Shown piece by piece: positions 13,423-60,094 of a stretch of 64,000 nucleotides of DNA (positions within the stretch are counted from its first letter, which is position 1; each line of letters opens with the position of its first letter). The DNA lies in contig JBCCCR010000007.1 in the NCBI GenBank assembly GCA_039033415.1, positions 61,262-125,261 on the forward strand, given 5' to 3'. Source of the DNA: Pseudomonadota bacterium (GTDB taxonomy: Bacteria; Pseudomonadota; Gammaproteobacteria; Xanthomonadales; SZUA-38). A program made the translations under genes and the position numbers. The notes beneath the pieces were generated by a model. The model saw only the letters and a list, made by a program, of their open reading frames with translations. It was not told the DNA's origin and did no database searches.

Positions 13423-16400
13423 TTATTCGAATCCGTTGATGAAGATCAACGCCGGCGGTCCGCTGGCGCCCAGATTGATCTGGCGCTGGGTTTCTACCCA
13501 GGTGCCGGTCAAGGTGTCATGCGCCCGCACCGTAATCACCTGCCAGCCCTGTTCCACACCCTGAGCGCTCACGTCCGCGGACCAGCTGTCCGTGCCGCTG
13601 GCGGCCACAAAGTGGCCGTTCGCCAGCGCGACATCGACCCGATCCACGGCCCCGCTGGCGGTTCCCGTGACGCTGACGGTTCCGCTGACTCCAAAATCAG
13701 CACCAGGCGTGCTGATCTGCACAGTCAGCGGGTTATCCGGGCGCGCATCCAGCTGGCGAAGGAAAGCCAGCAGGTCGCTGAAATCGCCGCCGCTCAGGTC
13801 GGCGACCCGGCTGTGAGGCGTCGACCGGCTGACCTGACTGGCCGTGTCGCTGACTCGGATCTCGTCCAGGCCAAACGATCCGCCGTTGTCATACCGAACC
13901 CTGACCGTGTTGCTGCCGCCGCTGAGCTGGATCGGGAGGCTCATTTCTCCCCACTGACGAAACATCCAGTCGTTGGCCAGGGTGCGCGGCGCCTGCACCG
14001 ACTGGTTGGAACCATTGATCGTGAGGGTGAGATTGGCGTCGCCGTAGTTGGCGTGATACCGCATGGTGAGGGTTGCGTCCGTCGCACCCCCAACATTCAC
14101 ATCGAAGGTCACCGCCGATCCGTCATCCATGTTGACGTACTCACCGCCGCGGAGCACCGCCAGGTCATCCACCGCCCAGTGCGATTGAAAGCGGATGTCG
14201 GTGCTGCCGCTCAAACTACCCTGCTCCGCCTGCCAGGCCCGATCGCCGGTCGACAGCAGCGCCAGCTCGAGCGTCGGCTGAGAGCCATCGTGGAGGTAAG
14301 ACGGGGTGTCCCAGATTCCGTTGAGGGTGGGCACGTCAATGCCCGCCAGGTTGCCGCCCAGACGTCCACCCGAATCGGTGCCGGTAGTGCCCAGGTCTTC
14401 CAACGCCAACGTGAGGTCGGTCCGCTGCACCCGCTCGGCACCGCTGTGGCAGTTGGCGCAGCCCTGGCTGGCGAAGATGTCGCGCCCGCGCTGAGCCGCC
14501 GAGGTCAGCCCGCCGTCGCTGCGGCGTTGTGGCGATCGGGGCACGGTCTGGGGGGTCAGCGAGGCAACGTACGCGGCCAGCTGGTCAAGCTCCGCATTTA
14601 ACCCGGCTTTGGGTGTGCCGAGGGTATTGCTGGTCTGATTGAACTGCGGTTCGGTGAGAAAGCCCGTGCCGCCAAACGCGCCACGAATATCGTTTTCAAA
14701 GTCCTGGATTTCGTCAAAGTTGGCGCTCCAGTGCACCAGACCATGACCGGTACCGCTTCGTCCCCGCAGGTCGGTGGTGTTGCGCACACCCTCGCCGCGG
14801 CCGCTAAAGTCCCACGAACGGCCGTCGTGGCCGCCGTCGATATGGCAGGTTGCGCAGGTCATATAGCCTTCGCCGCTCATGCGCTCATCAGCGGCGTTGT
14901 AGAAAATTTCTTTGCCCTGCTTCACGTCGACCGTCAGCGCCTCCCGGCCCACCAGATCCCGGGTAGAACTGCTGAAAGACGTGCTCCCGGTGCTCAGCAA
15001 GCTGCCCACATTGACCCGGCTGACCTGACGGTCCAGGAAGTTATGGCTCAGCAGTATGTCTGTGCCTGGCTCCAGCAGCAGGGACTGTGGCGCCAGGCCC
15101 ACCCCGATACGGGAGATCACGCTGGATACGCCGGTAAAGCCAGCGTCGATCATCAGCGTATCCATCACCAACACCACGTTACTGCCCTGCAGACTGACCC
15201 AAGCGTAGTCACCCTGCGGTGAGAACTCGATGTCGCTGGGCTGCTCGCTGTTGTCGAGGTCGCGCCGCAGCTCCTCCAGTTCGGTGCCACTCGCCAGATC
15301 GATCTGCGCCACCATGGCCCGCACCGTATTGTCCTGATCGAGATCTTCGCCGCTCAGGTAAACCCCACGGGTGGTGTTGTCCTTCTTCGCCGCCACCCAG
15401 GCCCGGCTGCCGTCGGGGGTGATGCTGACCGAGGCCAGATAGTTGGGCACACCTCGACCGTCAAAACGTTCGTCAGGCCCCCACTGCTGAGCCAGCGTGA
15501 TCGTTCGGTCCAGATTCAGGCCGTTAGCCGACACGGAGACATCCCAGATTTCCGCCCGGTCTTCGGGCGATATAAATCGGGTGACCAGCGCCCGATTTCC
15601 GCCGTCCGCTAACGCGATGACTCGAGCTGTAGGGCCCAGCGCCAGGCGGTCCAGCTCCGTGACCCCGGCCGCGTCAAAGAGAGCCAGCTCGCCGCTGCCG
15701 TACAGGGACACCAGCATACGGTTGTTCTGAGACCGCGCGACCACCCCGAAAGGCGCCGAGCCATAGCCGGTGTCGACGGTGGCGACACGCCGGCCGTCAC
15801 TCTCCAACACAATCAGCTGATCGGCATCAAAACAGCTGATCCAGGCGCGACCCGCTGCGTCGAACGCAACGCTTCGCGGGTCAGCGCAGGTGCGGTATTC
15901 AGCAACCCGCTGATGATTGCCGTCTCGAAGAACCGCGACGGTGCTGTTGTCCGGATTGATCACCCAGATCCGACCGTCGGGGGCCCGTGCGAGATGGCGC
16001 GACCGTCGATGGTCACCCGGCGTGATGTTGTTGAGGACCGCGACGCCCGTTGTTCCGGTTGCTACGGCAGACTGGGCATCACGTACCTGAACCGAGATGC
16101 CAAAGTGACCAACCTCCGCATAGCTGTGGCTGGCCTGGGCGGCCGACCCCCAGTCGGTGGGGGTCGAGCCATCACCGAAGTCGAATCGGTATTCCAGCGA
16201 TCCACCGTCGGGATCGACGGCAGACACGTTGACCTGCAGTGAGGTGCCAGGCGATACGGGTGATGAGCTGGTACTGACGCTGTTGATCACCGGACGGGCG
16301 TTTCCGCTTAGGGCACTGCCGGTCGAGAAGGTGAAAGAGTAGCCCTGCATGCCGTTGCCCACCGCATCTTCGATGCCATCGTCGACCAGGGTGACCTGGT

Positions 16401-17775
16401 ACGTGGTGTTATCAGCCAGCGGCTGTTCAGGAACAATCGACAGGATGTCGTTCGACGAGAACCACAGCTCCGTCGCCAGCGGCGAGCCAAGGCTTCCACC
16501 GTTGACCGGCTGGAGAAGGACGGTTGAGCTGTTGATGGTTTCTGACTTCAGCGTCTCGTGGATCAGCACCTGAATCGGAAAGTCGGTTGGATAGCCGGTC
16601 TCGCCGTCAGCCGGCCGGTGGTAGCCGACGAACGGACCACGGTTGTCCGGGGTCTCCTGATGAACCCAGATCGACATGCCGGTGCCACAGTGGTTTCCAC
16701 CCCCGGGCACCGAACAGGTACCGTTGATATAGATTCCGCCGGTGACCACCAGGTTGCCAACAGGGAGCTGCCACTGGCTGGTGTCGATGCGTTCGCCGCT
16801 GCGATTGTTGGCCTCCTCGTCGAGTTCCAGCACCACGTCGAAGGTACGCATATCGATTTTGTAGCGCTCGCTGAACGCAAACTCATCCTGGAACTGGGCG
16901 TAGTTCAGATTGCCGGCGAGCGGTACCGAGGCCACCAGCTGGAGGTCGGTGGGATCGGTGGCGTCGACCACCTGGAAGCCACCGACCGGGTTGTCGTGCG
17001 GGAAAAAGAAATAGAGCCGGCCGTTCAGCCCAAACGGGTCAGGCCAGTATCCGCCGACGCTGTTCTGGGTGAGGACGTCCAGCAGCACCGGGTTGGAGGG
17101 GTCGGAAATATCGTACGAAGCGATGCCAGATCGGCTTTGATCCGAGGCGTAGTAAAGCGTGGTGCCAAAGATAAATGGGTGCCCGATGACGCCGGTCTGC
17201 CCGACCGGGTCGAAGACGGCATTCGGCGTAGCGCCATAGGGTAGGTCCAGATACAGCTCTGCCGGCTCGTCGGTTTCGCCATAGGACCAGTAGTTGGTCG
17301 CGCCCCACGGGACGCTCATGCCCCCATGGGTCCAGCCGAGCATCCGAAAGTTCACGTTGTTTGTTTCGACCGGCGTGTTGCCGTCTACTCGAAATGCCCG
17401 CCCTGAGCTGAGAACGTCGCCGGTCTTGATAAACCCGTGGGCCATGAAGCCGTGGCGGGTCACCAGTGAATCGCCGTCGTTGTCACCCGTGAGCGGCGTG
17501 ATCGACACGCGGCTAGGATTGGCGGGATCCGAGAGGTCCCAAGCGCGCACAATCCAGTCGCCCGGGGGGCCGCCAGGAATCTCAGGGAGGGTAAAAAGAT
17601 AGTCGCCGTGCCAGGCGATCACCGCCAGGCGACCCATCTCCGGAGCCACAGGACCTGCCAGCAACACGCCGGCCTGCCCAGGTCTCGAAATATTCGGGAC
17701 CCCTTGCGACCAAGCTGGGGACAAGCAGCAAAGCTGCAGCGCAAGCAGCGGGACCAGAAAACGAGACTTTTTCAT
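13423..17775 (-). CDS. 1450-aa secreted multidomain protein: LVIVD-like propeller, Ig-like, PKD, second beta-propeller, di-heme cytochrome c peroxidase/MauG-like module, CBM6/35-like module, Ig-like tail
   Basis: Signal peptide MKKSRFLVPLLALQLCCLSPAWSQG. Repeats of the type YDISDPSNPVLL and VVDATDPTDLQLV. PKD signature DPDGGSLEYRFDFGDGS. Two CxxCH motifs (CATCH at 14842-14856, CANCH at 14446-14460) plus PSYLHDGSQPTLE typical of bacterial CCP/MauG. CBM-like block ending FGLDEIRV. Confidence 0.85.
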   Translation of the reverse strand: MKKSRFLVPLLALQLCCLSPAWSQGVPNISRPGQAGVLLAGPVAPEMGRLAVIAWHGDYLFTLPEIPGGPPGDWIVRAWDLSDPANPSRVSITPLTGDNDGDSLVTRHGFMAHGFIKTGDVLSSGRAFRVDGNTPVETNNVNFRMLGWTHGGMSVPWGATNYWSYGETDEPAELYLDLPYGATPNAVFDPVGQTGVIGHPFIFGTTLYYASDQSRSGIASYDISDPSNPVLLDVLTQNSVGGYWPDPFGLNGRLYFFFPHDNPVGGFQVVDATDPTDLQLVASVPLAGNLNYAQFQDEFAFSERYKIDMRTFDVVLELDEEANNRSGERIDTSQWQLPVGNLVVTGGIYINGTCSVPGGGNHCGTGMSIWVHQETPDNRGPFVGYHRPADGETGYPTDFPIQVLIHETLKSETINSSTVLLQPVNGGSLGSPLATELWFSSNDILSIVPEQPLADNTTYQVTLVDDGIEDAVGNGMQGYSFTFSTGSALSGNARPVINSVSTSSSPVSPGTSLQVNVSAVDPDGGSLEYRFDFGDGSTPTDWGSAAQASHSYAEVGHFGISVQVRDAQSAVATGTTGVAVLNNITPGDHRRSRHLARAPDGRIWVINPDNSTVAVLRDGNHQRVAEYRTCADPRSVAFDAAGRAWISCFDADQLIVLESDGRRVATVDTGYGSAPFGVVARSQNNRMLVSLYGSGELALFDAAGVTELDRLALGPTARVIALADGGNRALVTRFISPEDRAEIWDVSVSANGLNLDRTITLAQQWGPDERFDGRGVPNYLASVSITPDGSRAWVAAKKDNTTRGVYLSGEDLDQDNTVRAMVAQIDLASGTELEELRRDLDNSEQPSDIEFSPQGDYAWVSLQGSNVVLVMDTLMIDAGFTGVSSVISRIGVGLAPQSLLLEPGTDILLSHNFLDRQVSRVNVGSLLSTGSTSFSSSTRDLVGREALTVDVKQGKEIFYNAADERMSGEGYMTCATCHIDGGHDGRSWDFSGRGEGVRNTTDLRGRSGTGHGLVHWSANFDEIQDFENDIRGAFGGTGFLTEPQFNQTSNTLGTPKAGLNAELDQLAAYVASLTPQTVPRSPQRRSDGGLTSAAQRGRDIFASQGCANCHSGAERVQRTDLTLALEDLGTTGTDSGGRLGGNLAGIDVPTLNGIWDTPSYLHDGSQPTLELALLSTGDRAWQAEQGSLSGSTDIRFQSHWAVDDLAVLRGGEYVNMDDGSAVTFDVNVGGATDATLTMRYHANYGDANLTLTINGSNQSVQAPRTLANDWMFRQWGEMSLPIQLSGGSNTVRVRYDNGGSFGLDEIRVSDTASQVSRSTPHSRVADLSGGDFSDLLAFLRQLDARPDNPLTVQISTPGADFGVSGTVSVTGTASGAVDRVDVALANGHFVAASGTDSWSADVSAQGVEQGWQVITVRAHDTLTGTWVETQRQINLGASGPPALIFINGFE

Positions 17776-42746: not shown

Positions 42747-44156
42747 TCAACCGGTGCGCGACAGGGGTGGTGTAGCACCCGCTAACGATTCAGGGCCGCA
42801 GACCCGATTGCGACCTGCCGCTTTAGCCTGATACAGAAGCTGGTCGGCGCGCTCAAACAACGCCAGAGCACTCTCGCTTCCGCTGAGCTCAGCACAGCCG
42901 CAGGAAATTGTCACGGCAACCTTTTCGCCTTGAAACCGGAAATTAGCCGCCTCGATGGCGGCCCGAATTTTCTCGGCGGCCTGCCTCGCGTGCGCGCCCG
43001 TGCTCCCCGGGAGGACAACCACAAACTCTTCGCCACCATAGCGTGCCACCAGGTCGTCCCGACGAACGCTGTTCGCCAGGACCCGCGCCACCGACTCGAG
43101 AACTTTGTCACCAGCCTGGTGGCCGAGCGTGTCGTTAAGCTTCTTAAAGTGGTCGATGTCGCAGACCACCAGCCCGAGGGGTGTATTGGCATCCCGGCTC
43201 TCGCCGATCAGCTCTTCCACCCGAGCATCGTATGCCCTGCGGTTCAGCAGGCCGGTCAGTGCATCAACGGTGGCTGCCTGCCGGGCATCCGCCAGCTCTG
43301 ACTTCAGCTCGCCCGCCGAGGACTCCAGCTCGCCCACCCGGCGCCGCAACGCGTTGAGTTCCTCATCCTGCGCAACGTGACGCTCTCGCTCGTGGTCGAT
43401 AAAACCCTGGAGGCGGCTATGAATCGCCTCGGTACGTAGCTCAACCAGTTCCCGTAAGTCGGGTAGATCGGTGGCTTGTGCCACGTCGCTGCTGAGCAGA
43501 CCCAGGTGGCTGTTCACCGACTCGGCCATGGCTTCACCACGCTTGAGGTTTTCGGCGAACTGATCCTGGGTGCCCGCCAGCGACCGATCGATTTCCTTGA
43601 GCCGTGAGGTCAAGCGATGCAGAAACCCCTTGAGCTCGCGAACCTCACGCGACTGACGGGCGGCCGCTTCGGTGATGAGCTCAGCGATCTGCCGGACGGT
43701 GGCGGGCCAGCGGTTGTCAGGTACCGACTGCATCAGGGCAGCGCGGGTCGCCTCAAGCGCCTGCGGATCAAGAATCTCGCGGTCTACGACATCGAGCATG
43801 GCCAGAAAACGCGATTCGGGCGACGGCCGAGCCGACGGAACCGAGCCGCTCGCCTGAAGTGCCCCGTCGAGCTGCGACGCGGTGCGGTCCAGGGCGGATA
43901 CGCTGCTGGAGATGTCGTCGAGCAGCGCTTCGACCGATGCCGAAACCGGCGACGAGCGCACGCCGGCCAGCAGCTGGTCAAGCTGCCGATCGAGCTGCGG
44001 ATCGAGACCGGTGGCCGGGGCCGCCAGGCGGCTTGCCGTCAGCCGCAGCAGGACCGCCATTCGCTGGAGCTCCTGCTCGTCGCGCTCAGCGTCAGCCAGC
44101 GCAGCAAAATATTTCTGTTTCCAGTCTTCGGCCATCGGGTTCATCCGGCACATCAC
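42747..44156 (-). CDS. Diguanylate cyclase (GGDEF) with long N-terminal coiled-coil region
   Basis: ALTGLLNRRAYD and an RYGGEEF active site, with the RxxD I-site (RRDD) at canonical spacing. The N-terminal ~290 aa is heptad-like and Leu/Glu/Arg-rich. The start codon is uncertain. Confidence 0.85.
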   Translation of the reverse strand: MMCRMNPMAEDWKQKYFAALADAERDEQELQRMAVLLRLTASRLAAPATGLDPQLDRQLDQLLAGVRSSPVSASVEALLDDISSSVSALDRTASQLDGALQASGSVPSARPSPESRFLAMLDVVDREILDPQALEATRAALMQSVPDNRWPATVRQIAELITEAAARQSREVRELKGFLHRLTSRLKEIDRSLAGTQDQFAENLKRGEAMAESVNSHLGLLSSDVAQATDLPDLRELVELRTEAIHSRLQGFIDHERERHVAQDEELNALRRRVGELESSAGELKSELADARQAATVDALTGLLNRRAYDARVEELIGESRDANTPLGLVVCDIDHFKKLNDTLGHQAGDKVLESVARVLANSVRRDDLVARYGGEEFVVVLPGSTGAHARQAAEKIRAAIEAANFRFQGEKVAVTISCGCAELSGSESALALFERADQLLYQAKAAGRNRVCGPESLAGATPPLSRTG

Positions 44157-44198
44157 GCCTAATATCGGCCAAACGCAGAAAACCTGTGGCCTGGGGGG

Positions 44199-47060
44199 TT
44201 AGCCAGCGCAAGCCCAGGCGGGAAGATCGTTCGCTGTCGGGAGGGGATCTGCCGGGTTCGACGACAAACGTTCCAGGAGGGCTGGCAGCGATGATCGAGT
44301 GAGTTCGGCCTGAAATTCGTTGCTGAGGGCCTCGAGCGCCGCAACCTTGTCCTCTCCGATGGCGCTGCCCTTCGGAAGAACGGTTGCGGTAGCAATCACG
44401 CGATATAAACGCAGCTCATCCAGCGGATCGAACAGCGGATGAGTGTAGGTCGTCAGGGCCCGTTCCGCCGCCGACCCGGTGGGAGCGGTCAGAACAAAAA
44501 ACCAGCGACGGAGCGCCACCGTAAAGGCATCAGGATAAGCCGCCGGCGACGGCCCGCACTCGAACTCTTCCAATGTCGGCAACGGCTGGCCGGACAGCAC
44601 GCGACTTCGAATCAGCACGCGCCGCTGCTTGGCGGTTTTCGCCGGTTCGAGCTGATTCAAAGCCCACCGGGCCGTCGCCGGCTCGGCGGCGTCCAGCGCG
44701 ATGTCCGCCAGTTCCACTAGCAGATCGCTGGACGGCTGCTCCCGTTCCGCTAAGGGCAGCAGCAAACGCAGACCCTCGCTGTGCAGCTCGGCAAAGGACA
44801 GCAGCCTAGCGAGCTGCAGCCGCATCCGGTGGCTGATCTCGGCTTCGCCGCCGTAGCGATCAAGCGCCAGAGTCATGCCGGCCATCGCAGCCTCCACGCT
44901 GGTGGCACTTTGGCGGGCAAGGAACGCCGCGCGGGCCAGGTTCACCAGCACGACATAGCGGGTGTAATGCTCGCTGGTGGGCTCAACGATTCGTCGGGCA
45001 TGCTGGAGGCGATCCACAGCCTCAGAGTATCGACCGGTGCGAATGAGCAGGCCTGAATAGGTTCGCAGGACGCTTGCGTGGGTTGGATCGCTCGGCGAAT
45101 GGCGCCGGAAGATACCGAGGGACTCCTGAAACGCGGCGTCGGACTCATCGATGCGCCCTCCCTGGCCCAAAAAGATCCCCTGATTGCTTAGCATGACCGC
45201 CAGCGGAAACGGGTTTTCGGTTTCCCGCATGTGGGCCACGGCCTGACGCCAGTGTCCGTCTGCCGCTTCGCGATTCCCGGCTCGGAGGGCAACGCCGGCC
45301 AGCAGCTGGCTGAGCTGCCCACGACCGCGCGCGCTTTCTTGACCGAATTGCTCAGCCACTTCGGCCATCGAACGCACCGTATCGTCAGCCCGGTCCATCT
45401 GTCTTAGCCGGAGGTAGGCGTTGGCTAGGGCGTAGCTGGCCCTAAGCCACGTCTGACTCTCCTGCTTATTCAGAGGACGATCAGGCAATGATTCTCGTAA
45501 AAACCGCTCCGCCTCCGCCGGATCGTCTCGTACCAGGGCATTGCCGAGGCCATTCACCGCACTGAGATTCAGGCGCCGAGCCGACGCCGGCAGGTTTTGC
45601 GAGGCGTCATAAGCCTGCTGGTAAGCCTCTCGCTCCTCATCGGTCAAGCCGAGCTTCGCGTACGTTTCCCCCAGCGCTAGATACACCTCCGTCGCCAGCA
45701 GCGGGTCCCCCCTCACCTGCTCATCGATGGACGCCCGCGCCTGGCGTAACGCGTCGGTTAGACCGATATTGCTCTGACCCTCGCGGTAGGGGTCCGCCTG
45801 CCGAAAGACGCTGGCCAGAATTTCCTGCGCTTTTGCGCTTCGCTCGGCCTGCGCGTTAGCTTCGCGAGACCGATTGACCGCCACCAACGTCGCCAGCGTG
45901 AGGCCCACAGCAAAGAGTGCCCCAAGTGTGACGAGCGTGGCGTGCCGCTGAACAAATCGCTTCGCCAGATACCAGGGTGACGGGGGCCGTGCGGCGACCG
46001 GAAATCCGCCGAGGTAACTCCTTAGATCAGCAGCCAGCATCGCAACCTGCTCATAGCGATCCGCGGGATCTTTTTGCAGCGCCTTGAGCACAACCGCGTC
46101 GAGATCACGGGGAAGCTGAAGCTGGTGACGGCTTGGCGGCGACGGCGCTTTCTGCGTCAACGTCTCCAGCGCCTGCTCGAGCGACAGGTCGCCCAGCCGG
46201 TAGGGCGGGCGCTCGGCCAGCAGTTCGTACAGCAGCAGTCCCAGCTGATAAACGTCGCTGGCCACCGTGACCTCAGCATCGCTCACCTGCTCCGGGCTCG
46301 CGTATTGGAGGGTGATCGGGCTGCCCGCCTGGCCGGTCTGATAGGCATCGACCCGGTCTTCCAGCAACGCCGCCACGCCAAAGTCCAGCAGCCTGGGCTG
46401 ACCCTCTTCGTCGACCAGGATATTGGCCGGCTTGATGTCGCGATGAATCACCAGGCGGTTATGGGCATAAGCCACCGCGTCGCAGATCTTCAGAAACAGA
46501 TTGATCTTGGCGGTGAGAGAAAGGTCCGCCGCCGCACCGAGCAGGCTTTGACCGGCAACGTAGTCCATGGCGAACCACGGAGAGCCGTCGTCCAGGACAC
46601 CCGCATCAAGGAACCGTGCGATACCGGGATGCTGCAACGACGCCAGGATACGGCGCTCACGCAGAAATCGATCCAGCACGTCCTGCCCGCTGCGCTGCGC
46701 CTTCAACATCTTGATGGCCGCCGTCTGCGCGAAGTCCTGCGCCTCGCGAACGGCCAGCCAAACCTGCCCCATGCCGCCGGTGCCGATCAGTTCCTGCAGA
46801 CGCCAGTTGCCTGGCTGGCCCGGCGGCTCAACCACCGCGTTAGCCGCGTGGCTTTCGCTCAGCTGCCGCGCAGCGGCGGCGAGGGGCTGTAGATCGTCAG
46901 CCTCGGTACGTTGAAGCAAGTCCTCGAGCTGGCTTCGATGGACCGCCGGCAGCTCCGTCAGCCAGGCGTCGCGCTCTGCGGCGCCCAGGGATAGCGCGTG
47001 GTCGAGCAGTTCGTCCAGCCTGTGGAAATCGAGCGGCCCGGTTTCCCGGGTATCTGCCAT
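44199..47060 (-). CDS. Hanks-type Ser/Thr protein kinase with TM helix and large TPR domain
   Basis: GTGGMGQVW, AIKMLK, HRDIKPANILV, DFGVA and SPEQ, followed by one TM helix (LVTLGALFAVGLTLATLVAV) and about 550 aa of TPR-like repeats. Confidence 0.9.
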   Translation of the reverse strand: MADTRETGPLDFHRLDELLDHALSLGAAERDAWLTELPAVHRSQLEDLLQRTEADDLQPLAAAARQLSESHAANAVVEPPGQPGNWRLQELIGTGGMGQVWLAVREAQDFAQTAAIKMLKAQRSGQDVLDRFLRERRILASLQHPGIARFLDAGVLDDGSPWFAMDYVAGQSLLGAAADLSLTAKINLFLKICDAVAYAHNRLVIHRDIKPANILVDEEGQPRLLDFGVAALLEDRVDAYQTGQAGSPITLQYASPEQVSDAEVTVASDVYQLGLLLYELLAERPPYRLGDLSLEQALETLTQKAPSPPSRHQLQLPRDLDAVVLKALQKDPADRYEQVAMLAADLRSYLGGFPVAARPPSPWYLAKRFVQRHATLVTLGALFAVGLTLATLVAVNRSREANAQAERSAKAQEILASVFRQADPYREGQSNIGLTDALRQARASIDEQVRGDPLLATEVYLALGETYAKLGLTDEEREAYQQAYDASQNLPASARRLNLSAVNGLGNALVRDDPAEAERFLRESLPDRPLNKQESQTWLRASYALANAYLRLRQMDRADDTVRSMAEVAEQFGQESARGRGQLSQLLAGVALRAGNREAADGHWRQAVAHMRETENPFPLAVMLSNQGIFLGQGGRIDESDAAFQESLGIFRRHSPSDPTHASVLRTYSGLLIRTGRYSEAVDRLQHARRIVEPTSEHYTRYVVLVNLARAAFLARQSATSVEAAMAGMTLALDRYGGEAEISHRMRLQLARLLSFAELHSEGLRLLLPLAEREQPSSDLLVELADIALDAAEPATARWALNQLEPAKTAKQRRVLIRSRVLSGQPLPTLEEFECGPSPAAYPDAFTVALRRWFFVLTAPTGSAAERALTTYTHPLFDPLDELRLYRVIATATVLPKGSAIGEDKVAALEALSNEFQAELTRSSLPALLERLSSNPADPLPTANDLPAWACAG

Positions 47061-52758: not shown

Positions 52759-53250
52759 TTGCTAAGCGGAATCGCCCTCAGGAAAGCGCTTTGCGGGAGC
52801 TGGTTGCTGGCGACCTGGAACGTCACCAGAAAAAGGTTGGCTGACGCGACCCATGGTGCGCCGCAATTCCCCTTCGGCAAGCAGCCCGTTGGGCTGCTGA
52901 TCTACTCGCCCGACGGCTACATGAGCGCTACCGTCAGCGCCGGAGATCGTACGCGATTCACAGATGGCGCGAGCCCTCGTCAGCTGCCGGCGGCAGCGCT
53001 GGCGGACGCGTTTGTCAGCTACTTCCATTACGCGGGCAGCTGGTGGGTCGAGGGCGAAGAGGTGCTCCACCGGGTCGAAGCCGCCCTGAACCCAAACATG
53101 GTGGGCACAACTCAGGTCCGGCACGCATCTTTGGAGGGCAAGCGAATGCTGCTCACCGGGATCGAAACCTTAGCGGACCAGGAGCGGCGCCATGAAATCG
53201 CGTGGCGTCGCGCGGAGGCCGCTCCAGTTGGGCGGGCAAATGAACCGTGA
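52759..53250 (+). CDS. Lipocalin-like domain protein
   Basis: The pattern GSWLLATWN...GKQPVGLLIYSPDGYMSA...YFHYAGSW resembles the bacterial lipocalin-like domain family. TTG start, uncertain. Confidence 0.5.
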   Translation: MLSGIALRKALCGSWLLATWNVTRKRLADATHGAPQFPFGKQPVGLLIYSPDGYMSATVSAGDRTRFTDGASPRQLPAAALADAFVSYFHYAGSWWVEGEEVLHRVEAALNPNMVGTTQVRHASLEGKRMLLTGIETLADQERRHEIAWRRAEAAPVGRANEP

Positions 53251-53263
53251 GCCTAACCATTCC

Positions 53264-53530
53264 ATGAACTGTTTTGTTTATGCCGGCAAGAAGCTGCATG
53301 AGGGCTACCTGTTTGTGCCGCAAGAAAACGACTTCTCTCGCGTGCCCGACGCGCTGCTGCAGCAGCTGGGTGAGCTTTCGCTGGTGCTGGAGCTCAGCCT
53401 GGAGCCCGGCCGCAAGCTGGCTCGCTCAGATCCAGAGAAAGTCAGACAGGCTCTTACTGAAGCCGGCTATTTTTTTCAGCCGCCGCCAGCCAAAACGCCG
53501 CTGATGCCGAACGAACAGCTGCTGCGCTAG
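53264..53530 (+). CDS. ycgL: YcgL-domain protein
   Basis: MNCFVYAGKKLHEGYLFVPQENDFSRVPDALLQQLG...EKVRQALTEAGYFFQPPP aligns by eye with enterobacterial YcgL. Confidence 0.75.
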   Translation: MNCFVYAGKKLHEGYLFVPQENDFSRVPDALLQQLGELSLVLELSLEPGRKLARSDPEKVRQALTEAGYFFQPPPAKTPLMPNEQLLR

Positions 53531-53810: not shown

Positions 53811-54494
53811 ATGATTACAACGCGCCAGCTTTGCCGCACTTTCCAGGTCGGAGACACCGAGGTGCACGCCCTGGACCACGTGGATCTGGCCGTTGCTGCG
53901 CAGGAGTTTGTGGCGGTCATGGGTCCATCCGGTTCGGGGAAATCGACCCTCATGAACATCCTGGGCTGCCTCGACACCCCCGACGCTGGCTCCTATCAGC
54001 TGCTGTCTCACGAGGTCGCCGATCTTTCCGACGACGAGCTGTCGCAGTTCCGCAATGAACAGATCGGGTTCGTCTTTCAGAGCTTCCATCTGCTGCCTCG
54101 ACTCAGCGCACTCGAAAACGTGCTGCTGCCGCTGCGCTACGGCAAGGCCAGCGTCGGTGGCGAGCAGCGCGCGCGCGATCTGCTGGCAAGGCTCGGCCTC
54201 AATGACCGCATGGGCCATCGGCCGAATCAGCTATCCGGCGGCCAGCGGCAACGAGTCGCCATCGCCCGTTCGCTGATCAACGAACCGCCGCTGCTGCTCG
54301 CTGATGAACCAACCGGCAACCTCGACAGTCGAACCTCTGAGGAGATCATGAGTCTTTTCGAAGAGCTTAATCGAGAAGGGCAGACCATCGTGATGGTCAC
54401 TCACGAAGATGAAATTGCCGCCCACGCCAGCCGAGTCATCGCCATGCGGGACGGGAAGATTGCAACGGACACACGCCGCGAGGAAGCCGCATGA
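53811..54494 (+). CDS. ABC transporter ATP-binding protein (MacB/LolD-type, type VII ABC)
   Basis: Walker A GPSGSGKST, Q-loop, signature LSGGQRQR, Walker B LLLADEPTGNLD, H-loop VTHE. GGGGGG upstream of the ATG. Confidence 0.9.
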   Translation: MITTRQLCRTFQVGDTEVHALDHVDLAVAAQEFVAVMGPSGSGKSTLMNILGCLDTPDAGSYQLLSHEVADLSDDELSQFRNEQIGFVFQSFHLLPRLSALENVLLPLRYGKASVGGEQRARDLLARLGLNDRMGHRPNQLSGGQRQRVAIARSLINEPPLLLADEPTGNLDSRTSEEIMSLFEELNREGQTIVMVTHEDEIAAHASRVIAMRDGKIATDTRREEAA

Positions 54495-55450
54495 ATATGC
54501 CTCGGTTAATGTTTATCACGAGCCTTTTGTCACTCGGCTCTGCGAACGCCCAGTCGCTTTTGACGGGTGTGGTGGAGGATGTGGAGGCCCAGACGGTCGA
54601 AATGCCATCGCTGCCTGGGGCCTGGCAACGGCGAATAGAATGGATGGCAACCGAAGGTAGTAAGGTCGCCATCGGTGATCCACTGGTGACGCTGGATCCC
54701 GGCGACCTCATATCGCAGGAAGAGCAGACCCGAACAGACCTTGAGAAGCAGCAGCTGTCCGCTGCCCGCCAGGTCGACGAGCTGAAGCTGAAAGTGATGG
54801 ATGCAGAACAGCAGGTGGCACAGGCAGACGCAAGCGTTAGGCTGGCTGAACTTGACGCGGTGATTCCGGCGAGCACGATCCCGCGGCTAGACTACGACCG
54901 ATACCAGCTCGCGCTCGAAATCGCCCAGCGGGAGCGGATACGGAGCGAGGCGGAGCTTCTGAATGCTCAGGAAGAACTGAAAGACGTGAGCGAACGGGTC
55001 GAGCTTGAGGTTGAGCAGGCTCAGGCAAGCTATGAACGAATCAGCAAAGCGTTGGAAGCCACCGTCATCAAAGCCCAGAAGGCTGGCTTTGTCATCTACG
55101 GCGAAAACCCCTGGACTGGCAAAAAGATCTTCCCAGGCGAGACGCTGTATGGCGGTTTTGCAATCGCTTCGGTTGCCAGCCGGCAGGATTTACAGATCCG
55201 GTTTTGGGTCCACGAAGCGGATATCCGCCAGTTCCGGCTAGGCGAGGTGCTGCAGGTCACTGCTGACGCGCAGGGACTGGAGACGTTTAAAGCGACGATT
55301 ACGTATAGCTCCAGCCAGGCAGTCGAGCGGCAAGACTGGAGCGCCGGCGGATATTTTGAGCTGATTGCCGAGCCGGTTAGCCAGGTGCCCGAACAGCTCA
55401 TGCCCGGCATGAGCGTCATGGCCGAGCGCGCCGGAGCTGCAGAATCATGA
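54491..55450 (+). CDS. HlyD-family periplasmic adaptor 1 (cleavable signal peptide)
   Basis: Signal MNMPRLMFITSLLSLGSANA-QS. Lipoyl-like hairpin (GSKVAIGDPLVTLD ... IKAQKAGFVIY) and a central coiled coil. ATGA overlap with the ATPase gene. Confidence 0.8.
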   Translation: MNMPRLMFITSLLSLGSANAQSLLTGVVEDVEAQTVEMPSLPGAWQRRIEWMATEGSKVAIGDPLVTLDPGDLISQEEQTRTDLEKQQLSAARQVDELKLKVMDAEQQVAQADASVRLAELDAVIPASTIPRLDYDRYQLALEIAQRERIRSEAELLNAQEELKDVSERVELEVEQAQASYERISKALEATVIKAQKAGFVIYGENPWTGKKIFPGETLYGGFAIASVASRQDLQIRFWVHEADIRQFRLGEVLQVTADAQGLETFKATITYSSSQAVERQDWSAGGYFELIAEPVSQVPEQLMPGMSVMAERAGAAES

Positions 55451-56604
55451 ATAGTGCCAAGCCAACGCTGCTGAGCCTGATGCTCGTCATGTACTGCGCG
55501 GCCGTTCAGGCTGACCAATGGATGACGCTGGAGCCCGCCGACAGGCCAATCACCGTTTCAGCGTCAGGCATTGTGAATTCTGCCAATTCCCAGCGATTTG
55601 GTCCGCCGCCGAGCCGCAACTGGCGGGTCACCATCACCCAGCTGGCTGCGGAGGGCAGCAAACTCACTGAGGGTGATGTGATTGCCAAATTCGACGCCAG
55701 CAGCACCGACGATCGAGTGCGCAACCTGACGGGCGAACTCAACGCGAAACGTTCGGAGCTTGAGTCGACGCTCGAGATCCAGGCCCAGCAGATCGAAGAG
55801 GAAAAGGTTCAGCTGGCCAGCGCACGAAGTGCCGCTGACAAAGCGGAACGAAAGGCGAACGTCAGCGCCGATCTCTACGCCAGCCTGGAGTATCGCAAGC
55901 TGGTTGAAGAGCGCCGGTCGGCCAAAGACCTGCACGAACGCCAGCGGCAACGGCTCGTGCTCACCGAGCGCGTACGCGAGGCACAAATCGCCGAGTTGAA
56001 GGCCGATGTCCGTCGCCTCGAGAGCGAACTTGCGGGCGCGCAGCGGGAGCTGGAGTCATTTACCATCCGGGCGCCGCAGACGGGTGTGGTCATTGTTGGA
56101 ACCAACAATGAGGGTCAGAAGCTGGACGTCAATGATGCCGTCAATCCGGGCATGATCGTGGCAGAGCTGGCAGACAGTGAGAATCTGTTGATACAGGCAG
56201 AGGTTCCAGAGTTTGCGGCAGCCAGTATCGCTGTTGGCCAAGTGGCTGCCGTCACGATCGACGCGGCGGGTGGCAACGAGCTCGAAGCCAAAGTGACCGC
56301 GGTGGCAAGTATCGTGCGACGCCAATCTCGTTACTCTCAGGCTATGGTGCGGGACGTAACCCTTTCACTGCCTGAGGATGCCATGGCGAGGCTCCGGCCA
56401 GGTATGTCCGCAAAAATTGTCATCGAAACGGACGTTCGAAGCGACGCGCTGGCGATTCCTGATCTGGCGCTTCGCTATCGCGACGGCCAGCCCGGCGTGG
56501 AGATCCGTGGCCGGGGCTGGAGCCCGGTAACGCTCGGCCCCGCCAGCGGCGGTCTACGTATTGTCGATGCCGGAGTCGAAGCCGGCGCAGAGGTGGCGCT
56601 ATGA
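55447..56604 (+). CDS. HlyD-family periplasmic adaptor 2 (cleavable signal peptide)
   Basis: Signal ...MYCAAVQA-DQ. Lipoyl-like halves (GSKLTEGDVIAKFD ... IRAPQTGVVIV), a long coiled coil, and a beta-barrel region. ATGA overlap. Confidence 0.8.
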   Translation: MNSAKPTLLSLMLVMYCAAVQADQWMTLEPADRPITVSASGIVNSANSQRFGPPPSRNWRVTITQLAAEGSKLTEGDVIAKFDASSTDDRVRNLTGELNAKRSELESTLEIQAQQIEEEKVQLASARSAADKAERKANVSADLYASLEYRKLVEERRSAKDLHERQRQRLVLTERVREAQIAELKADVRRLESELAGAQRELESFTIRAPQTGVVIVGTNNEGQKLDVNDAVNPGMIVAELADSENLLIQAEVPEFAAASIAVGQVAAVTIDAAGGNELEAKVTAVASIVRRQSRYSQAMVRDVTLSLPEDAMARLRPGMSAKIVIETDVRSDALAIPDLALRYRDGQPGVEIRGRGWSPVTLGPASGGLRIVDAGVEAGAEVAL

Positions 56605-57842
56605 CCCTTCAGTATCAGACCCCAACCTGGCGGCGCCGACTACGTTTGCTTGGCGTTTGGCTACCCTTCGCTATCGCCCCGTTGCTGAGCGGTTGCGGGC
56701 AAACCGGCGGAGGTACGCCCGGGGTTGTGCTGGAGTCCGCCAGCACCGAATTTACCATCAGCGCGGAGGGAGAGCTGGTTGCGTCAGAGTCTCTTCCGAT
56801 CTCATTGCCCGGCTCGGTGCGTATGCGCTTCAATATCGCGTGGATGGCGCCGGAATTTTCTGAAGTGAAAGCCGGCGACGTTATTGCGCGTTTCGACGAC
56901 GTTCAGATTCGTCAGGATCGGGACGTTACCGCGCTCAATGTCACCAAGAGTGATTTTCAGCTGGCAGACGTGCAGCGCGGCGGCGAAGTCGAAAAAACCC
57001 GAATTGCTCACGATAGCGAACGCGTAACCGGAGAGCGCGCGTACACGGAGACCTTCGCCGGTGCCGACGAACGACTTTTCAGCCGCAACGAGCTCATCGA
57101 TGCGCTCGCTGACATCGACTATCTGGACGTCGAGTCAGCCTTCCTCGCCTGGGAGTCAAATACTTTCGATCAAAGGATCAGCGCCGAAGAAAATCTGATT
57201 CTCGCCCAACGTGACGCAGAGCTTTCGAAACTCCGGAAACAGGAAACGGCCCTCGGCATGATGGAACTGCGTAGTCCCGCCGACGGAACCTTTATCTATG
57301 CCCGGACGCCCTGGGGCGAGAAGTTGGGTAAAGGCAAAGCGGCGTTTCCCGGTCGACCTATCGGTCAGCTGCCGGTTCGAGGAAAGGTGAAAGCCAGATT
57401 GTTTGTGCCGGAGAATGATGCCGTCGGCCTAGCAAGCGGCCAGCGAGTTCGCTTTCGGCTCGACGCTGACAGTAGCCGCGACTTCACGGCAACGGTCACC
57501 ACCGTCTCACCAGTCGCGAGCCCGCGAAACCGCACCGACCCGCAGAAATATTTCAGCGTTGAGGCAAAAATCGACGCAGTCGATGCAGACCTTATGCGGG
57601 TTGGCAGCCGGCTTCGCGCCGAGGTCATCACTCACGAGGTCGATGATGCGCTCGTTGCACCGGCTCAGGCGGTATATGGCGACCAGAGTAACGCGTGGGT
57701 ATACGTGGTCAACGGTAGCAACTCGAGCGAAAGACGCTCCGTGGAACTAGGTCGGCGCAGTCCGGACCGGGTGGAAATCACGAGTGGCGTTGCAGCCGGC
57801 GAACGGATCAGTCTCGTGGCACCACCGGAGGAAACCGGATGA
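56601..57842 (+). CDS. HlyD-family periplasmic adaptor 3 (lipoprotein)
   Basis: Lipobox PLLSGC. Lipoyl-like halves (VKAGDVIARFD ... LRSPADGTFIY), a coiled coil, and a C-terminal beta-barrel. ATGA overlap. Confidence 0.8.
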   Translation: MTLQYQTPTWRRRLRLLGVWLPFAIAPLLSGCGQTGGGTPGVVLESASTEFTISAEGELVASESLPISLPGSVRMRFNIAWMAPEFSEVKAGDVIARFDDVQIRQDRDVTALNVTKSDFQLADVQRGGEVEKTRIAHDSERVTGERAYTETFAGADERLFSRNELIDALADIDYLDVESAFLAWESNTFDQRISAEENLILAQRDAELSKLRKQETALGMMELRSPADGTFIYARTPWGEKLGKGKAAFPGRPIGQLPVRGKVKARLFVPENDAVGLASGQRVRFRLDADSSRDFTATVTTVSPVASPRNRTDPQKYFSVEAKIDAVDADLMRVGSRLRAEVITHEVDDALVAPAQAVYGDQSNAWVYVVNGSNSSERRSVELGRRSPDRVEITSGVAAGERISLVAPPEETG

Positions 57843-59095
57843 GTGGTGGACTCAATTTAGCAAGCATGCTGGTCGACGTTCGGCAGGCCGCCGGCCAGCT
57901 CGCGCACCACCGCATGCGCACCGCCTTGACGCTACTCGGCATGATCTTTGGCGTAGGTGCTGTGATCGCCATGCTGGCAGTCAGCGAAGGCGGCCAGCGC
58001 CAGGCCCTAGAGCTGATCGAGGGCATGGGCCTAAGAAACTTAATCGTCGAAGCCCGGGAGCTGGATTCTGAAACGGCCAAAGAGGTCCGAAAGTATTCCG
58101 CTGGGCTGAATATTCGGGACGCCGAGTCAATCGCTCGCACCCTGCCTTTTGTGGAGAGCTGGTCAGGCGCCAAAGCGTTTCGCACTTGGAGTCTGTTCAG
58201 CCGCGAAGGACAGAGCAAAGCTGAAGTCCTGGCCGTCAGTCCATCCTTTTTCCGGCTCTCCAGTCTCAGTGCGCAGCGCGGGGAGTTCTTTGACGACGAC
58301 GCCAACCGTCGGTTCGCGCAGGTGGCGGTCTTGGGCAGCAACGCCGCCCGTGAACTGTTCCCCAACGGCGGCGCCGTCGGCGGTCGGATCAAGGTCAACC
58401 ACCTCTGGCTTGAGGTGGTAGGCGTTCTCCAGGACCGCCAGCTGCCGGACGAGCAGTTTGAGGGTCGCGAGGTCGGCGGAGAGGCAAACCAGGTCCTCGT
58501 TCCGCTGCGCACCGGATTGACCCGCCTTAAGCTCGATGATCTAAGCCAGGAGCTCGATGAGCTGAAGGTCCGGATCGGGGACGGCATCGAACCCGGGGCA
58601 GCCGCTCAGGCGATCCGTCATCTGCTGGACCGCCGCCACAGCGAGCAGAACGACTACCAGATTACCGTCCCGGCAAGGCTGCTGGCCCAACACCGACAAA
58701 CCCAGCGCATCTTTACCATCGTCATGTCTGCGGTGGCGGGTATATCGCTGCTGGTCGGCGGTATCGGAATCATGAACATCATGCTGGCAAGCGTGATGGA
58801 GCGTAAGTCTGAGATTGGCCTGCTGCGGGCTGTCGGAGCCACCGAGCGCGACATCGTGCGACAGTTTCTCGTCGAGGCCACCGTTATTGCGCTACTGGGT
58901 GCGGCCGCCGGCGTGGTGCTTGGGGTCCTACTCGCTTATACGATTGCCGCGTTTGCGGGCTGGGCAGTGGCCTGGTCGCTGCTGGTGATTGTCAGCGCAG
59001 TGATTGTATGCATGGCCATTGCGGTCGGATTTGGTGTCTATCCGGCCATGTCCGCTGCCCGTCTGGATCCGGTCCAGGCGCTCCAGTCGGACTAG
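57839..59095 (+). CDS. ABC transporter permease, FtsX/MacB type with large periplasmic domain
   Basis: TM1 (LTLLGMIFGVGAVIAM), a periplasmic domain of about 230 aa, then three C-terminal TM helices with the FtsX motif GIGIMNIMLASVMERKSEIGLLRAVGA. ATGA overlap. Confidence 0.9.
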   Translation: MSGGLNLASMLVDVRQAAGQLAHHRMRTALTLLGMIFGVGAVIAMLAVSEGGQRQALELIEGMGLRNLIVEARELDSETAKEVRKYSAGLNIRDAESIARTLPFVESWSGAKAFRTWSLFSREGQSKAEVLAVSPSFFRLSSLSAQRGEFFDDDANRRFAQVAVLGSNAARELFPNGGAVGGRIKVNHLWLEVVGVLQDRQLPDEQFEGREVGGEANQVLVPLRTGLTRLKLDDLSQELDELKVRIGDGIEPGAAAQAIRHLLDRRHSEQNDYQITVPARLLAQHRQTQRIFTIVMSAVAGISLLVGGIGIMNIMLASVMERKSEIGLLRAVGATERDIVRQFLVEATVIALLGAAAGVVLGVLLAYTIAAFAGWAVAWSLLVIVSAVIVCMAIAVGFGVYPAMSAARLDPVQALQSD

Positions 59096-59103
59096 CGAGC
59101 TGC

Positions 59104-59145
59104 CAGCCAGCCCGAGCGGGCTGGCTGACTGAGGTTTGTTTGTGG
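59104..59145. terminator. Rho-independent terminator (10-bp GC-rich stem CAGCCAGCCC/GGGCTGGCTG, GAGC loop, T-rich tail GGTTTGTTTG)
   Basis: Perfect stem at 59104-59113 and 59118-59127, located between the convergent ABC permease and methyltransferase genes. Confidence 0.6.
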
Positions 59146-59155
59146 CGGCTGACTC

Positions 59156-60094
59156 TTAGGCCGGCTTGCGAAACTTGAGCGTCATGCGGTTTGACTCACC
59201 GATCGCCGCAACCTTGGCTCGCATTTCAGGATCGTCACCGGTGCCGTTAAAGGTCGGCGGCAAACGCCACACTACATCGCTTTCACCCGGTGAGTCCTTG
59301 GGGTTTTCATTGATCGCCGACTCGGCCACAAATTCGAAGCCCGCGGCCTCCATGGCGCTGATTACGTCAGCTTTCTTCAGATAGCCGCGACCGCCGCCGG
59401 CCCATTCGTCGCTCCAGTCGTCCGGGGCCTGGTGCTGGACAATGCCAACAACGCCGCCCGGTTTCAGGACGTTAAACGCGTCAGCGATGGCGCCCGTGAA
59501 GTAGCCACCCTGATCCTCAAAGCGACGCATGTTGTGCATCGCGCGAACCAGCAGCACCGCGTCGGCGGTGCCCGCAGCGTCGGCCGGTAACTTTCCGAAT
59601 TCGTAAGCCGCGAGGGAAGCGCTGTCTTCCGTGCGCCACTCTTCAGCCTGCTTCGGCCACGTCTCGGTCCATACCTTAAAACCTTCGACGGCTTCCTCGT
59701 CAAAAAACCCGAAGAGCGGCCACATTTCTGCGCTGTAGTTGATGCCAACGAGCTTACCGTCAGCGCCCAGGTAAGGCAGCAGAATCTTGCTGTACCAGCC
59801 ACCGCCGGGCAGCGCTTCAACCACCGTCATGCCTGGCTCAATGCCAAAGAAGGTCAGGGTCTCCTCGGGATGGCGCGAGGCAAAACGCGCCTTGGCTTCG
59901 TCTGGTTGATCGGCCAGCACTCGTGTCAGAATCTGACTTGAGTCCTCCGGCGCATCCACCATCGTCATCTCTTTGGGCGCCTCATCCGGCGGCGCAACCT
60001 CCGCGCTCGTCGTGGGCTCTTCGCTGCCGCCGCAGCCGGCCAGCAGCGAACTTAAAACAACTGTCGCTGCAAAACAGTGGGTCTTTTTCATCAC
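59156..60094 (-). CDS. Lipoprotein with class I SAM-dependent methyltransferase fold
   Basis: Lipobox SLLAGCGG, followed by VVEALPGGGWYSKILLPYLG and VLKPGGVVGIV, the Rossmann-type methyltransferase motifs I and post-II. Confidence 0.7.
   Translation of the reverse strand: MMKKTHCFAATVVLSSLLAGCGGSEEPTTSAEVAPPDEAPKEMTMVDAPEDSSQILTRVLADQPDEAKARFASRHPEETLTFFGIEPGMTVVEALPGGGWYSKILLPYLGADGKLVGINYSAEMWPLFGFFDEEAVEGFKVWTETWPKQAEEWRTEDSASLAAYEFGKLPADAAGTADAVLLVRAMHNMRRFEDQGGYFTGAIADAFNVLKPGGVVGIVQHQAPDDWSDEWAGGGRGYLKKADVISAMEAAGFEFVAESAINENPKDSPGESDVVWRLPPTFNGTGDDPEMRAKVAAIGESNRMTLKFRKPA

Follow-up and report, generated by a model that had tools for sequence, protein, structure and literature searches.

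Related Adaptor-Dependent Pumps

Tripartite pumps are central to Gram-negative efflux and secretion, and how their six-membered adaptor ring reconciles a two-fold ATP-binding cassette (ABC) motor with a three-fold outer-membrane channel is an open structural question. Here we describe a five-gene cassette, at positions 53811-59095 of a 64-kb stretch of DNA from a gammaproteobacterium (the window; all coordinates are window positions unless prefixed L), that encodes an ABC exporter of the MacB type and three different adaptors of the HlyD family, the membrane fusion proteins MFP1, MFP2 and MFP3. What appears to be new is the three-adaptor layout on a transporter of known MacB type, and from comparative sequence evidence we infer that the exporter probably, though far from certainly, works with a hetero-oligomer in which the three adaptors co-assemble.

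Among the closest described systems is MacAB-TolC, whose stoichiometry is 2:6:3 (inner membrane : adaptor : outer membrane; PMC5595328) and in which the membrane-proximal (MP) domain of MacA is reported to activate the ATPase of MacB (Modali and Zgurskaya 2011, as cited in PMC5595328). The cassette resembles this pump in its permease with MacB_PCD and FtsX domains (E values of about 1e-50 to solved MacBs), in its MacB/LolD-type ATPase and in its long, MacA-like hairpins, MacA being the best solved relative of both MFP2 and MFP3. In contrast, where MacAB-TolC has one homohexameric MacA the cassette has three distinct adaptors, its ATPase and permease are separate polypeptides, two cleavable signals and one lipoprotein stand in place of the N-terminal transmembrane (TM) helix of MacA, MFP1 is without an MP domain, and no outer-membrane factor is linked. 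Because a single adaptor is the feature of MacAB-TolC-type pumps and three are encoded here, we do not file the system as a pump of that type.

The cassette shares split ATPase and permease genes, a MacB-type topology and adaptor dependence with DevBCA-HgdD, YknXYZ, Spr0693-0695 and the Vibrio VarACDEF system, but each of these has a single functional adaptor; the Var system contains one adaptor plus VarB, which is merely a 40-residue remnant (PMC5595328). The MFP1 model has its best structural match in EmrA, the adaptor of EmrAB-TolC, both being three-domain proteins with a long hairpin and no MP domain, and it is known that some adaptors lack a domain (PMC5985334). However, EmrA carries an N-terminal TM anchor and forms a homo-oligomer with a major facilitator superfamily (MFS) transporter, whereas MFP1 is predicted to be soluble and is encoded in a MacB-type operon together with two other adaptors.

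Low-identity paralogous adaptors encoded in tandem with a transporter are also found in TriABC-OpmH of Pseudomonas aeruginosa, where TriA and TriB (36% identical, as compared with 25-29% here) are considered to play unequal parts within a single hexamer (PMC4338810, PMC13328181). Nevertheless, TriC is a three-fold trimer of the resistance-nodulation-division (RND) superfamily, so that two adaptors fit a 3:3 trimer of dimers, whereas a two-fold ABC dimer with three adaptors would fit 2:2:2, and the energy source and the transporter fold differ as well. With an ABC transporter of the MacB type and three adaptors, instead of an RND transporter and two required adaptors, the cassette also lies outside the TriABC type. 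A further comparison is offered by DSY0927 of the Gram-positive Desulfitobacterium hafniense, a predicted fused two-module adaptor of an ABC-type transporter that reviews cite as evidence of adaptors working as hetero-pairs (PMC4338810, PMC4446572). Its two different fused modules are analogous, by description alone, to the MFP1-MFP2 fusions reported below, but its N-terminal module is described as having no coiled coil, the protein is known only as a prediction, and no third adaptor has been described.

The original prediction, made from the letters of the window, had stated that characterised MacB-type pumps use a single adaptor and that the two-adaptor precedent, TriABC, is an RND pump, in agreement with reviews of 2015, 2018, 2021 and 2026, which add to this precedent only the predicted fused adaptor DSY0927. 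Targeted literature searches and these reviews gave no published description of a three-adaptor ABC pump, an absence that remains unproven because literature coverage is incomplete. NCBIfam holds no specific model for these adaptors (all matches are generic and below cut-off), and the source annotations are similarly generic ('HlyD family' or 'efflux RND transporter periplasmic adaptor'); such labels hide a conserved adaptor triplet.

Organization of the Cassette and Its MacB-Type Transporter

The list of open reading frames (ORFs) places five genes on the + strand, in the order ATPase-MFP1-MFP2-MFP3-permease, followed by a terminator-like hairpin:

53811-54494 (+), ABC ATPase subunit of the LolD/MacB nucleotide-binding domain (NBD) type, 227 aa (PF00005 E 5e-33, intact motifs)
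54491-55450 (+), MFP1, short three-domain adaptor, 319 aa (TIGR01730 E 1e-11, AlphaFold2 (AF2) model)
55447-56604 (+), MFP2, four-domain MacA-like adaptor, 385 aa (HlyD_D23 E 2e-13, TIGR01730 E 6e-21)
56601-57842 (+), MFP3, four-domain lipoprotein adaptor, 413 aa (TIGR01730 E 5e-26, lipobox LLSGC)
57839-59095 (+), MacB-type permease, 418 aa (MacB_PCD E 9e-34, FtsX E 2e-19)
59104-59145 (+), terminator-like hairpin 3' of the permease stop codon (by folding energy), facing a convergent gene at 59156-60094 (-)

The four gene junctions are ATGA overlaps, at 54491, 55447, 56601 and 57839, each with a purine-rich Shine-Dalgarno-like stretch just 5' of it. The coordinates, lengths and order of the five genes in the original prediction agree exactly with the ORF list, and the four start/stop overlaps that it had claimed were all read in their places. 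Its 'strong terminator' fared less well. A plausible hairpin is indeed present, with a G+C-rich stem of 10 bp (CAGCCAGCCC/GGGCTGGCTG, at about 59104-59127), a 4-nt loop and then an interrupted T tract, and its minimum free energy is -29.8 kcal/mol (z = -2.86 versus shuffled sequences); however, a consensus scanner did not call it, because the T tract is interrupted, and by this standard it is not 'strong'. A sigma-70 promoter was sought 5' of the operon and no convincing candidate was found. The G+C content of the operon (60.7%) equals that of the window and, therefore, gives no sign of recent acquisition.

The ATPase (ABC_tran, PF00005, E 5e-33) has its best NCBIfam similarities to the MacB NBD (E 7e-77), LolD and DarD, its translation contains intact Walker A (GPSGSGKST), signature (LSGGQRQR), Walker B (LLLADEPT) and H-loop (VTHED) motifs, and its orthologs in related loci are 65-100% identical. 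The permease matches MacB_PCD at residues 28-261 (E 9e-34) and FtsX at 298-411 (E 2e-19), and it aligns over its full length with the solved MacBs of Acinetobacter baumannii (E 2e-52), Escherichia coli (1e-50) and Aggregatibacter actinomycetemcomitans (4e-48). It has four TM helices, the first two of which are separated by a large periplasmic core domain, and its C-terminal TM bundle is of the FtsX type. The ATPase motifs and the permease architecture assign the transporter to the MacB type (type VII ABC).

Domain Content and Anchoring of the Three Adaptors

MFP1, MFP2 and MFP3 all match HlyD_D23, HlyD_3 and TIGR01730 (Pfam and NCBIfam), the match of MFP1 being the weakest (E 1e-11, significant yet under the curated cut-offs), and the lipoyl domain split by a helical hairpin and the β-barrel that characterise the HlyD family are present in each. 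These hidden Markov model (HMM) searches thus confirm the earlier assignment of all three middle ORFs as adaptors, none of which lacks adaptor domains. Pairwise alignment gave only 25-29% identity over most of their length, a divergence that marks them as old paralogs and not as recent duplicates. They also differ in domain content. The TIGR01730 match spans model positions 107-305 in MFP2 and 105-305 in MFP3 and ends at 245 of 322 in MFP1. In the AF2 model of MFP1 (mean pLDDT 82.7), strands at 24-68, helices at 73-123 and 132-189 and strands at 192-313 are followed by the chain end, and therefore MFP1 has no MP domain; Foldseek placed EmrA first and MacA next among its best matches. An MP domain is a feature of MacA and AcrA that EmrA-type adaptors lack. 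In contrast, MFP2 aligns with residues 84-361 of E. coli MacA, MP domain included, and the C-terminal half of MFP3 matches A. actinomycetemcomitans MacA and MexJ. The AF2 model of MFP3 shows a β-barrel and an MP domain with pLDDT above 90 and a 58-residue second hairpin helix (162-219) equal in length and offset to that of MFP1, and its best Foldseek matches are the MacA chains of MacAB-TolC complexes. Hence, within the window the MP domain is present in MFP2 and MFP3 and absent from MFP1.

The adaptors also differ at their N-termini, and none of them has the TM helix of MacA. MFP1 (...SANA|QS) and MFP2 (...AVQA|DQW) begin with short hydrophobic signals ending in AXA-type sites; in the orthologs, the MFP1 signal ends just before the conserved mature sequence LLTGVVED, and in the window's clade the MFP2 signal ends before (E/Q)QW. 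MFP3 carries the lipobox LLSGC, whose Cys is found in 56 of 68 orthologs by a regular expression and in nearly all of them by eye, and is mostly followed by Gly or Ser at position +2. The signal types that had been read in the window (ANA-QS, VQA-DQ and LLSGC) are therefore as claimed and are conserved in orthologs. On the basis of these patterns and of their conservation, from which signal cleavage was deduced, MFP1, as well as MFP2 in the window's clade, is predicted to be soluble after removal of its signal.

The hairpin tips are distinct among the three paralogs, each being conserved inside its own orthogroup. An RLS-type TolC-binding motif (R-x3-L-x6-S) fits the tip of the window MFP1 (R117, L121, S128) and is absent from MFP3; it is not strictly kept in the deep branch of the family described below, and no claim is based on it.

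Conservation of the Cassette

Relatives of MFP1 number in the hundreds in a protein search, and most of them come from uncultured members of the Woeseiaceae, the Lysobacterales and other Gammaproteobacteria. A genome scan with one genome per species yielded 73 related loci, and in all of them tblastn found the order ATPase-MFP1-MFP2-MFP3-permease wherever the contig reaches, with each adaptor matching its own ortholog, to 35-45% identity in Pseudomonadales and sponge-associated bins. The genes missing from some of these loci are all explained by contig ends, and two loci contain frameshift-like splits. In a few contigs of metagenomes or metagenome-assembled genomes (L010:10159-12563, L065:11396-12621 and L087), MFP3 or the permease is split or a hairpin insert measures 114 residues, which most likely reflects assembly frameshifts and not true pseudogenes.

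The same cassette was detected by tblastn against PLSDB on chromosome II of Pseudoalteromonas piscicida and of Pseudoalteromonas sp. NC201, where overlapping genes encode proteins of 228, 316, 384, 396 and 411 aa. When the MFP1 of P. piscicida served as the query of a protein search, further relatives were traced to Thalassomonas, Arsukibacterium, Ferrimonas, Biformimicrobium, Colwellia and Psychrobium. Four further genomic contexts from this deep branch contain the same five genes among unrelated neighbours and with no adjoining outer-membrane factor, and the layout is found in five cultured marine genera (Pseudoalteromonas, Thalassomonas, Ferrimonas, Arsukibacterium and Biformimicrobium). 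Each of the 15 deep-branch adaptors is most similar to the window adaptor of corresponding position, at 24-35% identity, and therefore the triplication predates these lineages. No locus that had lost one adaptor was seen among roughly 100 or more loci, three non-interchangeable adaptor orthogroups being kept in every complete locus, and all identified carriers are Gram-negative. The neighbourhood is far less constant. The window's flanking genes are common to only 1-6 of the 73 loci and 16 is the largest number of loci in which any family of flanking genes is seen again; the five genes thus behave as a self-contained module. The synteny search proposed with the original prediction accordingly found one gene order in 73 loci, in five cultured genera and in metagenome contigs, and the family, far from being an already characterised one, is widespread yet uncharacterised.

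Across these loci the domain asymmetry is maintained. An MP domain and an anchor are both invariably present in MFP3 and both invariably missing from MFP1. MFP2 is variable: it has a signal peptide and an MP domain in the window's clade, it is a lipoprotein in the Alteromonadales-type deep branch (L074, L076-L079), it measures only 343 aa and has no C-terminal MP region in two deep-branch genera, and it is without the MP domain in Arsukibacterium, Biformimicrobium and nearly all metagenome loci (L080-L125).

MFP1-MFP2 Fusion Proteins

When an MFP1 profile was scored against 1.84 billion representatives clustered at 50% identity, 554 clusters were obtained at E <= 1e-30, so that the MFP1 type alone refutes any idea that the architecture is rare or unique to this genome. 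Among the best 150 of the 554 representatives, MFP1-type proteins stand alone in 90 cases and are fused to MFP2 in 36. These 36 fusions are in frame and keep the gene order, with Pro/Ala/Ser/Thr-rich linkers of about 15-40 residues and no internal signal peptide, and none of the fusions found involves MFP3. A metagenome scan with the fusion alignment retrieved 47 loci (G+C 59-74%, one of them labelled as an activated-sludge assembly), 14 of which read ATPase, fused MFP1~MFP2, MFP3 and permease; most of the other 33 correspond to the unfused five-gene cassette as far as the contig reaches. No cultured carrier of the fused variant was found in PLSDB.

A further 12 of the best 150 representatives are more distant tandem two-module adaptors of about 740-800 aa (P0299, P0316, P0323, P0343, P0355, P0357 and others), in which both modules are MFP2-like and each has a hairpin insert of 121 residues; the two that were read, P0299 and P0365, have MP-like C-terminal segments in both modules. 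A 1006-aa match resembling a 'triple' adaptor (P0354) was rejected as out-of-frame high-GC junk, and P0344 and P0389 look like artefacts.

The fusions bear on the idea that the three adaptors are alternative, separately assembling homo-oligomers by which one MacB pump would serve different channels, substrates or conditions. The hairpin tips, distinct among the paralogs and conserved within each orthogroup, are in agreement with such a division of labour, as is the promiscuous sharing of outer-membrane channels among adaptors in other bacteria (PMC4446572). We nevertheless consider this explanation highly improbable, given that the tight ATGA coupling points to co-expression and not to choice, that no adaptor loss was seen in the loci surveyed, that MFP1, and MFP2 in most lineages, is without the MP domain that MacA needs to activate MacB, and that the in-frame fusions force a 1:1 ratio of MFP1 to MFP2.

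Hairpin Length and Evolutionary Rates

The hairpin insert, measured as the number of residues between equivalent anchor positions of the two lipoyl half-domains, is 121/121/121 (MFP1/MFP2/MFP3) in 57 of 61 loci and 121/121/122 in the other four, despite the identity of only 25-29% among the paralogs. It is also 121 in 15 of 15 deep-branch adaptors and, in the metagenome loci, in 45 of 46 MFP1, 37 of 38 MFP2 and all 28 MFP3 modules. More distant representatives, intended as a control for the 121-residue length, had 121 residues too and so do not constitute an independent control; the insert of E. coli MacA is about 117 residues, a rough estimate from the MacA alignment.

The adaptor genes are coupled by a 4-nt overlap at the MFP1-MFP2 junction in 48 of 69 loci and at the MFP2-MFP3 junction in 46 of 69. 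The three adaptors have mean pairwise distances of 0.47-0.49, as compared with 0.29-0.31 for ATPase and permease, and their distance matrices correlate best with one another (r of 0.96-0.97, and 0.55-0.64 once the ATPase/permease trend is removed).

These data are relevant to a second alternative, namely that MFP3 alone forms a MacA-like homohexamer on the MacB dimer, with MFP1 and MFP2 in a separate accessory complex that might, for example, deliver substrates, serve as a gate or form a second-tier ring. Only MFP3 combines all four domains with a lipid anchor in every case, its model is closest to the MacA chains of MacAB-TolC, the fusions link MFP1 to MFP2 and never to MFP3, and MFP1 is predicted to be soluble, all of which would suit such an arrangement. 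However, MFP1 and MFP2 keep full hairpins of exactly the MFP3 length throughout the family, which is hard to explain unless both are aligned to MFP3 or to one common channel; evolutionary rates are equal in all three adaptors, and no such accessory role is known for adaptors with a full hairpin. We therefore regard an MFP3 homohexamer as unlikely.

Genomic Surroundings

An outer-membrane factor was not found in the 64-kb window by tblastn or by Pfam scans of candidate ORFs, which bears out the earlier remark that no TolC-type or regulator gene adjoins the cassette. A search of the 73 loci for a consistently adjacent gene for a substrate, a regulator or an outer-membrane protein was negative, the one recurrent neighbour being an RND operon. 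This operon, which lies immediately 5' of the cassette and in divergent orientation in 9-16 of the loci (for instance L027:5318-7009, L039:2060-5317 and L073:1265-2857, within the L003-L073 subset), encodes an AcrA-like adaptor, a 1079-aa AcrB-like pump and a NodT-type outer-membrane lipoprotein, and is a possible source of a shared outer-membrane channel; tblastn showed that it is absent from the window.

It could also be argued that the pump does not span to a TolC-type channel and that the adaptors and MacB act in the inner membrane and periplasm in the manner of YknXYZ, for example by extracting or shielding an envelope lipid or peptide. The lack of an outer-membrane factor in or beside the cassette, in the window and in most loci, agrees with this proposal, and MacB-type transporters with adaptors do exist in bacteria without an outer membrane (PMC5985334). 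Nevertheless, the hairpin helices, which measure about 51 and 58 residues and in the model resemble those of MacA and EmrA, are of the kind that docks TolC-type channels, outer-membrane factors are commonly encoded elsewhere (PMC4446572), and the identified carriers are all Gram-negative, which together make a non-spanning pump very unlikely.

Two genes flank the operon in the window, i.e., the convergent gene at 59156-60094 (-), which encodes a 312-aa predicted lipoprotein (LLAGC) with no Pfam match, and a gene directly upstream at 53192-53530 (+), which encodes a YcgL-domain protein. Both are common to the closest relatives only and are, therefore, probably unrelated to the pump. In Ferrimonas pelagia, the region 3' of the cassette on the opposite strand (L076:12724-16972) encodes a PAS/HATPase kinase, a sigma-54 response regulator and two more MacB_PCD+FtsX permeases. 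Elsewhere in the window, a 1450-aa ORF at 13423-17775 (-) with Big_5, PKD and CBM6/35 domains and weak cytochrome-c, CCP_MauG and cytochrome D1 matches looks like a large secreted multidomain protein, and at 42747-47060 (-) a 953-aa Ser/Thr protein kinase with tetratricopeptide (TPR) repeats adjoins a 469-aa GGDEF diguanylate cyclase with a diguanylate cyclase (DGC)-associated coil, a couple that may form a signalling pair.

A Proposed Mixed Adaptor Ring on the MacB Dimer

The assembly of the three adaptors into one hetero-oligomeric ring was pure inference in the original prediction, and it has now gained independent comparative support from the co-retention of the triplet, the equal hairpins and the MFP1-MFP2 fusions. 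The 2:6:3 stoichiometry of MacAB-TolC implies that a two-fold MacB dimer in a six-membered ring would offer three non-equivalent adaptor positions. A 2:2:2 ring of three dedicated paralogs would suit this arrangement, much as TriA and TriB suit the three-fold RND trimer, and an exact 2:2:2 composition is accordingly put forward as a tentative proposal. Equally provisional is its stricter form, in which an obligate hetero-hexamer, (MFP1-MFP2-MFP3)x2, would share the two-fold symmetry of the MacB dimer and only the MP domain of MFP3, one for each MacB protomer, would be needed for coupling to the motor.

In such a pump, permease and ATPase would form the usual two-fold dimer, and the six-membered ring would contain two copies each of MFP1, MFP2 and MFP3, its two-fold symmetry matching that of the pump. 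The equal-length hairpins of the three adaptors would build one α-helical barrel docking an outer-membrane channel encoded elsewhere. MFP3, as the only universally lipid-anchored adaptor with an MP domain, would make the regulatory contact with each MacB protomer, and MFP1, with neither anchor nor MP domain, would fill the ring positions beside MFP2. Given the reported role of the MP domain of MacA, the absence of this domain makes it unlikely that MFP1 alone is a sufficient adaptor. The fusions imply that MFP1 and MFP2 would be neighbours, and a short linker is geometrically plausible because the C-terminus of MFP1 and the N-terminus of MFP2 are both membrane-proximal. ATP-driven mechanotransmission would then lead to the expulsion of a substrate located in the periplasm or the outer leaflet, with both the direction and the kind of transport presumed.

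Several observations weigh against a mixed ring. The equal hairpin length could reflect shared ancestry together with separate homo-oligomers docking the same outer-membrane channel, and the mirror-tree correlations, which are not independent of shared phylogeny, are suggestive only. The fusions demonstrate joint action of MFP1 and MFP2 but not a ring shared with MFP3, and the MFP3 model has low confidence in the lipoyl domain and the first hairpin helix (overall pLDDT 65). No outer-membrane factor gene is present in the window or consistently linked across the 73 loci, the RND operon of 9-16 loci being the sole neighbour that could supply one. Moreover, a 2:2:2 ring would match MacB in symmetry and still leave a mismatch with a trimeric outer-membrane channel, in which respect it is no better than a homohexamer.

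If the three adaptors do share one ring, the cassette would show how nature can resolve the 2:6:3 symmetry mismatch in tripartite pumps of the ABC type and would represent the first three-adaptor efflux machine, with each non-equivalent ring position filled by its own paralog and with the fusions defining the order of neighbours. The ring positions, seemingly 'hard-wired' to their own genes, would make position-specific roles such as channel docking, motor activation and ring closure accessible to a genetic dissection that is impossible with the homohexameric MacA, and the presence of the cassette in cultured organisms makes the hypothesis directly testable.

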